Positions 40,419 to 43,266 of a DNA stretch of 64,000 nt are shown here, piece by piece. Source of the DNA: a phage; assembly GCA_019385495.1 (NCBI GenBank), contig GCA_019385495.1_4102.1; one strand, 5' to 3'. The notes under the pieces are model-generated. The model was given only the letters and a program-made list of their open reading frames with translations, was not told the origin of the DNA and ran no database searches. The stretch's first letter is position 1; each line of letters opens with the position of its first letter. The position numbers were made by a program, and so were the translations under genes.

Positions 40419-40723
40419 AAAAATTATTAGTTCCGTTTATTTCTTTTTTAATTATAAGTGGATGTGCAGAACAAGTAAAACTACAATCCCCTGCACCAAT
40501 TAAACAAGAAATTCTGTTAGAAAGATGTGATGATGATACACCTCTACCACAAAAAATTATGATTGACAAAAATGGTTTTAAAGGTTATGATGGTGCAGAA
40601 ATTCTTAAAGTACTTACTCGTTGGGATGCAGTATACAACGAATGTGCTTTAAAACATGATGCATTAATTAAAACTATTCGTGATTTACAAGGTAAAGATA
40701 TTAAAATCAATATCAAGGAATAA
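40415..40723 (+). CDS. putative o-spanin lipoprotein (Rz1-like)
   Basis: Signal peptide with lipobox ISGC; ATGA overlap with upstream gene. Confidence 0.5.
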   Translation: MKKLLVPFISFLIISGCAEQVKLQSPAPIKQEILLERCDDDTPLPQKIMIDKNGFKGYDGAEILKVLTRWDAVYNECALKHDALIKTIRDLQGKDIKINIKE

Positions 40724-40724
40724 A

Positions 40725-41195
40725 ATGAACAAATATCATGTTTACTATACGACCAAATTATCACTTCTTGACGAATTAAATCAACGAAGTACTAAGATGA
40801 AACGCTACACTTTAAATGGTATTACTTTTCGATATTTCCCACAAAAAGTTCTTACATTTATTAAGAATCCAAAATGCGTGGCATGTGGGATTGAAGCTAC
40901 TGAAGTACGCATTGAACGTTCATTATGTTCTGATCCAGTATATGGTAAACCACATTTAAATGTATATGCTGTATGTGGTCTTTATGAAGTTTTAATGACA
41001 GTTGACCATAATCATCTGGCATCTAAGGGTGGACCTGATTTAGAGTCAAACTTTAATACTATGTGCTCCAGATGTAATCAACTACGTTCGAATAAAACTG
41101 AAACAGTTGATGAGTTTCTTGAGAAAGTTAAAGGTCGTAATCTTCTCCAAGAACATATGAATAATTTCTTTAATGTACAAAAAAAAGAAAAATAA
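40725..41195 (+). CDS. HNH endonuclease
   Basis: VDHNHLASKGG..N..CSRCN HNH motif; RBS AAGGAA; ORF-track start 40680. Confidence 0.75.
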   Translation: MNKYHVYYTTKLSLLDELNQRSTKMKRYTLNGITFRYFPQKVLTFIKNPKCVACGIEATEVRIERSLCSDPVYGKPHLNVYAVCGLYEVLMTVDHNHLASKGGPDLESNFNTMCSRCNQLRSNKTETVDEFLEKVKGRNLLQEHMNNFFNVQKKEK

Positions 41196-42147: not shown

Positions 42148-42176
42148 TGGGACATTATATGTTCCAATGATATAAT
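42148..42176 (+). promoter_or_regulatory. promoter with imperfect palindrome TGGGACAT-tat-ATGTTCCA and extended -10
   Basis: Palindrome 42148-42166; TGaTATAAT 42168-42176. Confidence 0.5.
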
Positions 42177-42183
42177 GTATATA

Positions 42184-42699
42184 GAAAATGACAACGGACA
42201 TTGAAAAATGGACACTGAGAACCTACTTCTCTTGAAAATGTAAAGGATAGATGAGCTTTACCGTTGTAGCGAACAGCAGAAGAAACCTGTTAGAGTACTG
42301 GCATTCAAACAAACACGATGTAAGACCACGAATCACGGCGACACGGCTGTATAAAGAACTCCGATAAGCATACAGAGAGTTCCTAGATAGATGTATAAGG
42401 TTCGCACCTTACCAGATTTGCTAAGGGAGTTTAAGAATAGCGGACGCAATTTTACAAGAAAGTTGCGTCCAAAATTTGAGAACAGGTACTTACTTTGATC
42501 GAATAGAGTTAGTACTGAGTGCTGTTGATGAAAAGACCAGCGACCGTTGCATATGACTGCGATAGAGAGAAACCGAGCAACCCGCTTTCGCTCTCTAAAT
42601 TTTGGTACAAGAAAGATCCGTCCAAAATTTGAGAAATTCGCAATTCGATAATATCCGATGCCATCATCGTCAAGAGAGACTTAATTGTCTCTTTTTTAT
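42184..42699 (+). ncRNA. candidate structured non-coding RNA (about 0.5 kb, unknown class)
   Basis: No credible ORF; GC visibly higher than flanks; own promoter and terminator; several GC-rich hairpins and a 30-nt direct repeat. Confidence 0.3.
42673..42699 (+). terminator. intrinsic terminator
   Basis: AGAGAC-ttaatt-GTCTCT followed by TTTTTTATT. Confidence 0.6.
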
Positions 42700-42837
42700 T
42701 ACCTTCATTCCCCTGCGGGGGGATGTAATAGTCCTCAACAAATCCCGTCAAGTTTTTAAAGTACATTATCATTTTCAGAAGGAACAAGTTTACGAAGTAA
42801 ACGCAGTGACTTCTTGAGTTACGAGAGAACGAAGTGA

Positions 42838-43266
42838 ATGAGTAACACAACGAAAATATCCGATAAATCCGAATTAACACAAATGTTATTCAAAGAATAT
42901 TTTGAGTTTCAGATAAAAGACGAACATCAATTACCACAGCAATATTTGAAAAGAATTAAAGATCCGTCAGTAATTACTAAAGAAACTAATTTTTATAATA
43001 GTATTTTGGATTTCGTTAAATCAGTTCATACAACAAGACCTATTGTAGTTTTGTTTTTTGATAAATCTATTCCTTTAGTAGTTCCTGAAAATGTATTTTT
43101 TATTTCAGAAACTGATTTAAATAATCAAAGTACTGTAAGTAGATTAAGAAATTGCTTACTTGTAGTATGTGATTCTTCTTTGTATAATAACAGAATACTA
43201 TGGGATAGAAGTAAACGCAATGCAGTTTCTGAAATGAATCCTGAAATTACCTTTATTATTAACTAA
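42838..43266 (+). CDS. hypothetical protein
   Basis: ORF. Confidence 0.45.
   Translation: MSNTTKISDKSELTQMLFKEYFEFQIKDEHQLPQQYLKRIKDPSVITKETNFYNSILDFVKSVHTTRPIVVLFFDKSIPLVVPENVFFISETDLNNQSTVSRLRNCLLVVCDSSLYNNRILWDRSKRNAVSEMNPEITFIIN

Follow-up and report, generated by a model that had tools for sequence, protein, structure and literature searches.

The window analysed here is a stretch of 64,000 nucleotides (nt) of phage DNA (contig GCA_019385495.1_4102.1, assembly GCA_019385495.1). Its source is an Asteriusvirus, a Rak2-like jumbo phage, and the region described is 98-99.7% identical to that of phages slurp01, PBECO4 and 121Q. Two nearly identical 30-nt sequences are found in a gene-free gap of 690 nt (42148-42837), which lies between open reading frames (ORFs) on the + strand. 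By its predicted anatomy, this gap is one conserved unit composed of a promoter, an RNA of approximately 515 nt, a terminator-like hairpin, a G-rich hairpin and more hairpins up to approximately position 42840. The two repeats are peripheral decorations of this RNA, a pseudoknotted molecule of approximately 515-660 nt that belongs to a multi-copy family and that was missed by the initial annotation of this DNA.

The GC content of the gap rises to 0.41-0.43, compared with approximately 0.30 in its surroundings, and the region carries no annotated gene in the records of most related phages. The gap DNA is 66-71% identical in GAP32, CBB, XbC2, fHe-Yen9-04, Serratia phage BF and Erwinia phages, and a 49-nt core shows 86% identity in the Klebsiella phages RaK2 and K64-1. 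The neighbouring genes vary. The element is found after GAP32_343 and, in phages BF, XaC1 and Muenster, ahead of a Dam methylase; in phages Munch, EJP2 and Hallingskeid it is flanked by endonuclease VII and the baseplate hub. These differing neighbours indicate that the element is a self-contained unit.

Architecture of the RNA and its promoter

Covariation was assessed over 39 non-redundant homologues (full scan), and pairs were counted in 27 3'-domains (alignment A1). The features of the unit are as follows (bp, base pairs; PK, pseudoknot).

42148-42176, + strand: promoter, with TGGGACA (42148-54), a 13-nt gap and an extended -10 element TGaTATAAT (42168-76)
42184-42697, + strand: main RNA body of approximately 515 nt, delimited by composition, by having no conserved ORF, by hidden Markov model (HMM) matches and by covariation
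42191-42267, + strand: PK3, the 5' leader ACAACGGA (42191-98) with ACCGUUGU (42260-67)
42273-77/42346-50, + strand: helix ACAGC/GCUGU, 5 bp, 4 compensatory, 97-100% canonical
42356-60/42378-82, + strand: hairpin GAACU/AGUUC, 5 bp, 5 compensatory, 96% canonical
42384-42429, + strand: conserved junction, with UAGAUAGAYAUAUAAGG, a small hairpin (42396-400/42407-411) and CUUACCA...UAAGGGAG
42429-42483, + strand: site-1 peripheral hairpin, with repeat copy 1 (42453-42482) and an extra 5' arm GGACGCAAUUUU (42442-53) that masks its middle
42485-89/42512-16 and 42492-96/42505-09, + strand: hairpin Pa, 10 of 10 pairs with double changes, 90% paired
42498-504/42643-49, + strand: PK1, Pa loop AUCGAAU with AUUCGAU, 7 of 7 pairs compensatory, 100% paired in 27 sequences
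42521-24/42538-41, + strand: hairpin Pb, GCUG/CAGC, 4 of 4 compensatory, 95% paired
42542-42590, + strand: most conserved core, GACCGUUGCA...GAAACCGAGCAACCCGC, with invariant columns in A1
42546-50/42577-81, + strand: PK2, GUUGC/GCAAC, an upstream strand with the Pf loop, 100% paired, one pair CG in 20 and UA in 7 sequences
42565-69/42585-89, + strand: Pf, GAGAG/CUUUC, 100% paired, 4 compensatory
42558-62/42638-42, + strand: Pe, UGCGA/UCGCA, 100% paired, 4 compensatory
42592-42637, + strand: site-2 peripheral hairpin, with base UCUC/GAGA, A/U stem AAAUUUUGG/CCAAAAUUU, AC/GU and an 11-nt open loop, holding repeat copy 2 (42606-42635)
42656-60/42665-69, + strand: 3' hairpin CGAUG/CAUCG, 38% paired in A1, where MAFFT misaligns it
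42675-42697, + strand: terminator-like hairpin AGAGAC-UUAAUU-GUCUCU followed by U6, read from the sequence
42706-42845, + strand: downstream part, with the G-hairpin CAUUCCCC-UGC-GGGGGGAUG (42706-25), CAACAAAUCCCGUCAAG (42736-52), an AU-rich stretch and hairpins with ACGAAGUGA-type loops

In alignment A1, 90% of the cells are paired compared with 69% in shuffles, and double changes occur at 37 of the 45 pairs of the 3' domain. The covariation score of this domain is 0.62, vs 0.21 in shuffles (0 of 500 reach the observed value) and approximately 0.1 in slid controls. Pe, Pf and the site-2 hairpin meet in a three-way junction, and the 3' strand of PK1 comes immediately after its Pe counterpart. 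The helix at the base of the site-2 hairpin (42592-95/42631-34) is 95% paired, with compensatory changes in all four pairs.

Towards the 5' end, PK3 comprises 8 bp, seven of them with compensatory double changes, and is 89% canonical over the 39 sequences; in GAP32 it reads UGAUUGA/UCAAUCA. Its downstream strand, ACCGUUGU, is the loop of a hairpin formed by 42255-57 and 42268-70. A closing helix between 5' CUGAUUGAC and 3' CGUCAG was considered and has been superseded by PK3, which covaries. The ACAGC/GCUGU helix encloses a conserved AGAAGAAACCYGUUAG block and a variable region that exists in two interchangeable forms. The columns of the conserved junction are near-invariant in the homologue alignments, and its small hairpin was read directly from the sequence. 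For the 3' hairpin, different complementary sequences are visible in each homologue, e.g. CUGG/CCAG, AGCU/AGCU and GGUA/UACC.

An HMM built from members outside Asteriusvirus matches 42196-42756 with an E value of 5e-103, and the minimum free energy (MFE) of the main body has a z-score of -2.9. At the level of sequence covariation, the gap is thus shown to hold an evolutionarily conserved structured RNA with at least three covariation-supported pseudoknots. Our confidence in this anatomy is high.

A promoter scan gave GGGACA-16-TATAAT with TG, and transcription probably starts at approximately 42183-42185. The -10 box and a TGRRACR box are aligned in all homologues, and a terminator is often located just ahead of them. 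The same unusual promoter (TGRRACR, approximately 13-14 nt, TGnTATAMT) precedes every member of the family, including the copies in bacterial genomes described below. It is of the "divergent RpoD-like" type (TGAAACG and TATA), which has been reported upstream of DNA-synthesis genes in CBB and GAP32 (PMC5259590). The shared promoter type suggests that expression is phage-controlled (middle-type).

The terminator-like hairpin was missed by a terminator scanner, having few G-C pairs and an A/U-rich stem. Homologues have a variable hairpin at this position, followed by a U-run in some only, and many paralogues and bacterial copies lack the U-run or the hairpin. It may therefore be a structural hairpin or an attenuator, in which case the RNA would be longer, approximately 660 nt here.

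Conservation continues past this point. All members proceed with a G-rich hairpin and then CAACAAAUCYCGUCAR, and an HMM built from the bacterial-island copies alone matches 42218-42839 (E 5e-69). The heptamer CGUCAAG occurs twice, just before the terminator-like hairpin (42669-75) and after the G-hairpin (42746-52). The AU-rich stretch is followed by hairpins with ACGAAGUGA-type and GNRA-type loops, in which a conserved loop is flanked by stems that differ between members. The evidence for these hairpins is per sequence only; alignment-level covariation was not obtained for them, as MAFFT misaligns the variable stems. It should be noted that the ATG of the ORF at 42838-43266 lies within the last conserved hairpin (GUUAC...GUAAC); the start of this ORF may be misannotated, or the ORF may overlap the element. 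The first approximately 55 nt of the RNA (42184-42240) are also 71-77% complementary to 42747-42790, with a perfect 8-bp match GAAAAUGA/UCAUUUUC. This pairing is not visible in phage A4, and the complementarity may be an AU-rich chance match or a long-range closing helix.

The RNA family is apparently uncatalogued, as judged by its lack of a match in Rfam 15. At the gathering score, the 64-kb window gave no match to Rfam 15, whose models also cover 6S RNA, riboswitches and small ribozymes, and a permissive search of the region returned only noise of the small nucleolar RNA type (E 0.36-10). Nothing relevant was found with Rfam 15 at ten paralogue loci or at seven bacterial loci, the latter giving an unrelated thiamine pyrophosphate riboswitch. 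ARAGORN predicts no tRNA or transfer-messenger RNA (tmRNA) genes in the 64 kb. We found no earlier description of the family in the literature searched; it could sit among the 10,006 unnamed candidates of PMC10690425, the supplements of which were not searched.

Several known identities were considered and rejected. A tRNA-like end is not supported, since the loop of the hairpin formed by the internal ...CCUUACCA does not show T-loop conservation. The RGAUGAG-hairpin-CG block is similar to that of hammerhead ribozymes, but the U4 position is A or G, the "GAA" following the hairpin varies (CGAUGA, CGCAGU, CGUUGU) and there is no Rfam match. The sequences GAAGAAACCCGUUAG and GAGCAACCCGCUUUC recall CR-I and CR-V of RNase P but lack the mutual complementarity expected of P4 strands, and no covariance model matched. 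A group I or II intron is likewise discarded, because the RNA has no flanking exons, has its own promoter and matches no intron model.

The 30-nt module

A direct-repeat search returned a single family, consisting of TACAAGAAAGTTGCGTCCAAAATTTGAGAA at 42453-42482 and TACAAGAAAGATCCGTCCAAAATTTGAGAA at 42606-42635. The two copies are identical at 28 of 30 positions and 153 nt apart. When the 690-nt gap was shuffled 300 times with its dinucleotides preserved, the highest ungapped identity between 30-mers was 19.2 on average and 23 of 30 at most, and the pair of repeats that drew attention to this locus is thus well supported. The GGT insertion described ahead of copy 2 is also there: once it is counted as an insertion, the preceding six nucleotides, AATTTT, match between the copies on direct reading. 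A motif HMM, trained without any Asteriusvirus sequence and run over the window, finds exactly these two sites (E 2e-5 each), and the next match has an E value of 0.07.

The initial annotation placed the repeats in two different hairpins, and both fold as proposed. In copy 1, GGACGCAAUUUU pairs with AAAGUUGCGUCC (-20.7 kcal/mol, z-score -6.2 against shuffles). In copy 2, AAAUUUUGG pairs with CCAAAAUUU, extended by AC/GU and UCUC/GAGA (-12.4 kcal/mol, z-score -3.9). Holding one sequence in two folds is a family-wide property. The further claim that both hairpins display the same UACAAGAAAG loop was wrong, as the loop is ACAAG in copy 1 and AAGAAAGAUCC in copy 2. The two substitutions between the copies in the window (UUGC vs AUCC) are exactly the bases matched by the copy-1 arm.

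We refer to the repeated sequence as the module. Its consensus is roughly (G/U)UACAAUAUAG(A/U)U(C/G)(C/U)GUC(C/U)AAAAUU(U/C)GAG. The motif HMM detects it in most of the 39 non-redundant members, and its distribution over the two sites is as follows.

Site 1 only: e.g. the BF/SNUABM19 type, L034 and L043
Site 2 only: the GAP32 group and the L031 type
Both sites: the window, A4, JNE01, XaC1, L030 and seven of nine bacterial copies
Neither site: RaK2, EJP2 and the second 121Q paralogue

The hairpins that lack the module are short. At site 1 these are GCCA-GAAA-UGGC in the GAP32 group and C(UACG)G in L031. At site 2 they are UCUAUU-GAAA-AAUAGA and UCUA-GAGA-UAGA. The hairpins of other members have loops of UUUA, AAAA or five or more nucleotides. 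Several of these caps are of GNRA or UNCG type. As a short hairpin is found wherever the module is absent, the module is an optional apical element of two peripheral hairpins.

The two sites hold the module differently. In MFE folds of 16 site-1 copies, the extra 5' arm pairs with module positions 10-19 in 11-15 copies. In the folds of 19 site-2 copies, positions 10-19 pair with the 5' flank in at most seven (positions 10-18 in one to three), and positions 20-28 (…AAAAUUUGA) do so in 11-16. At site 2, the middle positions stay unpaired, except in the GUUGUAUC variant, where UACAA/UUGUA makes a small hairpin inside the module. The site-1 arm changes together with the few variable bases of the module, as in GCAAU/GUUGC (window), GAUUUAU/AUAGAUC (L007), GACGGAAUUAUA/UAUAGUUACGUC (XaC1), GACAC/GUGUC (L030) and GGU/ACC (A4). 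The stem at site 2 varies between homologues as GG/CC, AG/CU and AUUCCA/UGGAAU. Basal stems use G.U pairs, e.g. GUUAAAUUUGG/UUGAAUUUGAC in L020, which argues that the pairing acts at the RNA level. Comparison of the homologues and their predicted folds shows that the sequence of the module is conserved far better than its local fold. Reading the module as a promoter or as an integration host factor (IHF) site was rejected because the spacings are unsuitable.

The repeats had been interpreted either as an RNA motif or as two paralogous micro-ORFs, and the family-wide pattern bears out the former alone. Both micro-ORFs are open in the window (42391-42498, 35 aa, and 42547/42553-42651), and the repeats lie in one frame. 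The frames that would encode the related basic peptides are broken even in relatives that are 95% identical. In EC.P1 and CMSTMSU, a frameshift brings ORF1 to a stop after 10 codons, and neither JNE01 nor any of the phages examined outside Asteriusvirus has the ATG of ORF1. ORF2 is interrupted by in-frame stops in both JNE01 and A4. Copy 1 is missing in the GAP32 group, and length differences among relatives across the region are often not multiples of three. With start, frame and stop not kept, a small protein gene was rejected, and the conservation is accounted for by base-paired covariation.

Small hypothetical ORFs have been annotated inside the RNA, on either strand, in several other phages. 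Examples are g347 and g348 of fHe-Yen9-04, ORF245 of RaK2, CPT_Muenster_135, A4_511 and several entries of the kind "hypothetical protein (x4-x6)" in Salmonella SD-* and WPEC phages. These ORFs are not conserved between relatives and are probably spurious.

The family in phages and bacterial islands

We searched IMG/VR for the core pattern GACCGTTGYA-N-GAAACMGRRCAACCCGC and found 46 loci. The pattern occurs several times per genome, as listed here for individual phages and uncultivated virus genomes (UViGs).

121Q: 2 copies (L045 and L084)
RaK2: 2 copies
GAP32: 3 copies
fHe-Yen9-04: 3 copies
Serratia phage BF: 4 copies (L043, L060, L094 and L096)
UViG of 359,777 bp: 4 copies
UViG of 366,160 bp: 5 copies

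Rak2-like genomes thus hold two to five diverged paralogues, which are similar over their full length and group into approximately 15 clusters at 25% divergence. The 64-kb window has a single match to the core pattern, so that no second paralogue is found there. Segments have been swapped among paralogues: the distribution of the two 5' variable-region forms does not follow the clusters, as seen e.g. in L001 vs L096. In the second 121Q paralogue, L045, both modules are absent.

Two genes upstream of the RNA in the window, an ORF of 171 aa (40680-41195, + strand) contains an HNH-type motif (…DHNHLASKGG…CSRCNQLRSNK). It resembles a free-standing homing endonuclease, and an HNH endonuclease is annotated at the same relative position in phage A4.

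When one bacterial genome per species was scanned, nine Enterobacterales assemblies (L099-L107) proved to contain the full element. The hosts are Serratia fonticola (a complete chromosome), Citrobacter amalonaticus, Enterobacter chinensis, Silvania, Buttiauxella, a second Serratia and metagenome-assembled genomes. A separate scan of 5426 complete E. coli genomes found the element in two. One of these copies, L108 of E. coli LR-29-1 (NZ_AP027515.1, approximately 3,478,971-3,479,553), is located on an island beside ffs.

The islands are low in GC (L105, 0.28-0.39 vs 0.58 in the flank). Several loci share a gene order of an integrase (large serine or tyrosine type), the RNA, a CI-like S24 repressor on the opposite strand, a Cro-like winged helix-turn-helix protein and a 286-aa protein. 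As the next island gene is convergent, the conserved part downstream of the RNA cannot simply be a 5' untranslated region. At one locus, the RNA adjoins two ParB/RepB-like genes and a duplicated rof gene. Among the ORFs scanned in the 8-18-kb island loci, which were not all of the ORFs present, we found no structural-protein families. The 286-aa protein has no phage homologue, and PADLOC gave only marginal matches to unrelated families (E 0.0015-0.006) for the island proteins beside the RNA.

Islands transduced by jumbo phages (satellites) have been shown in Pseudomonas, where no shared non-coding element was described (PMC12595487). The islands found here may, from their gene content, be satellites of Rak2-like phages. 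We speculate, tentatively, that the unit of approximately 700 nt is a cis-acting handle of these phages, most plausibly for transcript-primed initiation of replication. The islands would have captured this handle and be amplified or carried on infection, as satellites of jumbo phages that do not form a nucleus, and the 30-nt modules would be recognition sites for a phage factor.

Function of the module and comparison with known systems

On balance, we lean towards reading the two copies as a conserved RNA module of approximately 28-30 nt that caps two peripheral hairpins of a promoter-driven, pseudoknotted RNA and most likely serves as a docking platform. The RNA would be transcribed from the promoter at 42148-42176 and fold into a pseudoknotted core with sites 1 and 2 at its surface. 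The module would be a sequence-specific platform for a trans-acting partner, for which we favour a protein, with an RNA as the alternative. Site 2 would expose the central AGAUCCGUC in its 11-nt loop. At site 1, the co-evolving extra 5' arm would mask the central segment, so that the RNA of the window would present one open and one masked copy. The strands of a helix normally drift together. Here, the sequence of one strand is kept, among paralogues more than 25% diverged and in the bacterial copies, while its pairing partners adapt, which argues that the sequence itself is read by something. We rank a trans-acting partner above an RNA-RNA contact and the latter above a DNA-level binding site, and our confidence in the mechanism of the module is moderate.

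Several points weigh against a docking platform. No protein is consistently encoded beside the RNA; flanking proteins cluster by syntenic position and differ between paralogue types, and the 286-aa island protein that was tested has no homologue in phages. RaK2, EJP2 and the second 121Q paralogue lack the module, so that the core function does not depend on it. Gene conversion among paralogues could account for part of the conservation of the module. The conserved downstream part and the presence on islands suggest that the DNA might have a cis-acting role beside that of the RNA. No RNA-seq of a Rak2-like phage was found in the literature, and the transcript and its ends are predicted from sequence.

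A possible, clearly less probable explanation is that the module makes RNA-RNA contacts. The exposed loop and the A/U stem would then form a tertiary contact in place of tetraloop caps, or an intermolecular kissing-type contact as in the homo-oligomeric assemblies of GOLLD, ROOL and OLE. At both sites the module alternates with short caps, some of GNRA type (GAAA, GAGA), and large ribozymes typically exchange peripheral contact elements in this manner. The common variant has the palindrome GAUC in its open loop; this is replaced by GUUG or GUUA in many members, copy 1 included. A precedent is offered by PMC12286853, where large phage-associated RNAs form RNA-only multimers and loop contacts can drive assembly. 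However, no complementary or co-varying receptor was seen, the presence of the module is uncorrelated with the form of the 5' variable region, and the motif has no antisense counterpart in the window. Conservation of the loop is too strong to yield covariation.

We consider it doubtful that the constraint lies on the DNA. The unit would then be a transcript-primed (R-loop) phage origin or another handle, with the 30-bp repeats as iteron-like protein sites in hairpin tips that tolerate insertions, and an infecting Rak2-like phage would replicate or mobilise the islands. The sequence is indeed held whatever the RNA fold, there are two to five copies per genome, and downstream of the RNA come a G/C-rich hairpin and an AU-rich stretch. 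An origin of phage T4 combines a middle promoter with an unwinding element, and T4 replicates and packages plasmids that carry such origins; the RNA II of ColE1 is a structured pre-primer of approximately 550 nt. In CBB, the promoter type seen here lies ahead of DNA-synthesis genes (PMC5259590). Low-GC islands with an integrase carry the full unit as well, in one case beside the two ParB/RepB-like genes, and jumbo-phage satellites are documented in Pseudomonas (PMC12595487). However, the intricate covarying pseudoknotted fold exceeds the needs of a primer, and the G.U basal pairs and the co-varying masking arm are constraints at the RNA level. The copies are 153 bp apart, which does not amount to whole helical turns, and some members have one module or none. 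The GC skew is positive on both sides of the unit, with no switch between 40000 and 45000, and mobilisation of the islands would be conjectural.

It is improbable that the module has no function of its own, its copies having arisen by duplication or by gene conversion between paralogues and being tolerated in variable hairpin tips. Several members do without it, and the paralogues clearly swap segments, as seen for the 5' variable region in L001 and L096. Against this, the same sequence of approximately 28 nt is kept in paralogues more than 25-30% diverged and in island copies of several genera, while the surrounding stems have changed by compensatory substitution, which points to purifying selection on the module sequence. 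The last alternative, that the paralogous micro-ORFs (42391-42498 and 42553-42651) encode basic peptides, is refuted by the comparison with relatives given above.

Large, intricately folded non-coding RNAs are rare, and each class (RNase P, group I and II introns, tmRNA, OLE, GOLLD, ROOL) brought new biology. The candidate class described here has unusually clean covariation and three pseudoknots. Cultivable E. coli phages (e.g. PBECO4, 121Q and phAPEC6) carry it, which makes it directly testable, with the several paralogues per genome as natural variants and the 30-nt module as a concrete handle on surface hairpins for finding a partner. That virulent jumbo phages and integrase-bearing islands share the RNA points to an unrecognised phage-island relationship in Enterobacterales. 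In addition, RNA genes can now be assigned to the "empty" gaps of approximately 0.7 kb, some with spurious ORFs, in dozens of deposited jumbo-phage genomes.

In PA5oct (PMC7318152), a phage of a related lineage, RNA-seq has revealed abundant non-coding transcripts, 236-619 nt long and without annotation. In a comparison of ncRNA001 and ncRNA002 of PA5oct with the family (ncRNA003 and ncRNA004 fell outside it), nhmmer gave E values above 1 and the core motifs were absent; these two RNAs are thus without similarity to the one described here.

Transcript-primed origins such as ColE1 RNA II and T4 oriF and oriG resemble the unit in having a promoter, a long transcript, a G/C-rich element and an AU-rich stretch. 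As with T4-like origins, there are several copies per genome, and the element is shared with small non-autonomous islands. The RNA here is far more elaborate, and the GC skew is uninformative on the origin reading.

In phage protein-binding RNA repeats (pseudo-ToxI, RNA decoys), a short RNA sequence is likewise present in variable copy number and kept over its fold. Unlike these, the module occurs in zero to two copies within a large folded scaffold, not in tandem, and its partner protein would be hypothetical.

The RNA differs from large ribozymes (group I and II introns, RNase P RNA) in being Rfam-negative and intergenic with its own promoter, and in that no receptor was identified. It resembles them, with their tetraloop caps, receptors and expansion hairpins, in that two peripheral hairpins vary between a short cap and an extended module around a fixed pseudoknotted core.

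GOLLD and ROOL often adjoin tRNA genes. Unlike these two, the RNA here has no tRNA gene in its window, and the family is found in Enterobacterales jumbo phages and islands. It does not match the Rfam 15 models of GOLLD, ROOL or OLE, and it forms two to five diverged paralogues per genome. With all three it shares a size in the 500-800 nt class, many helices and pseudoknots, its own promoter and a link to phages and integrated elements.

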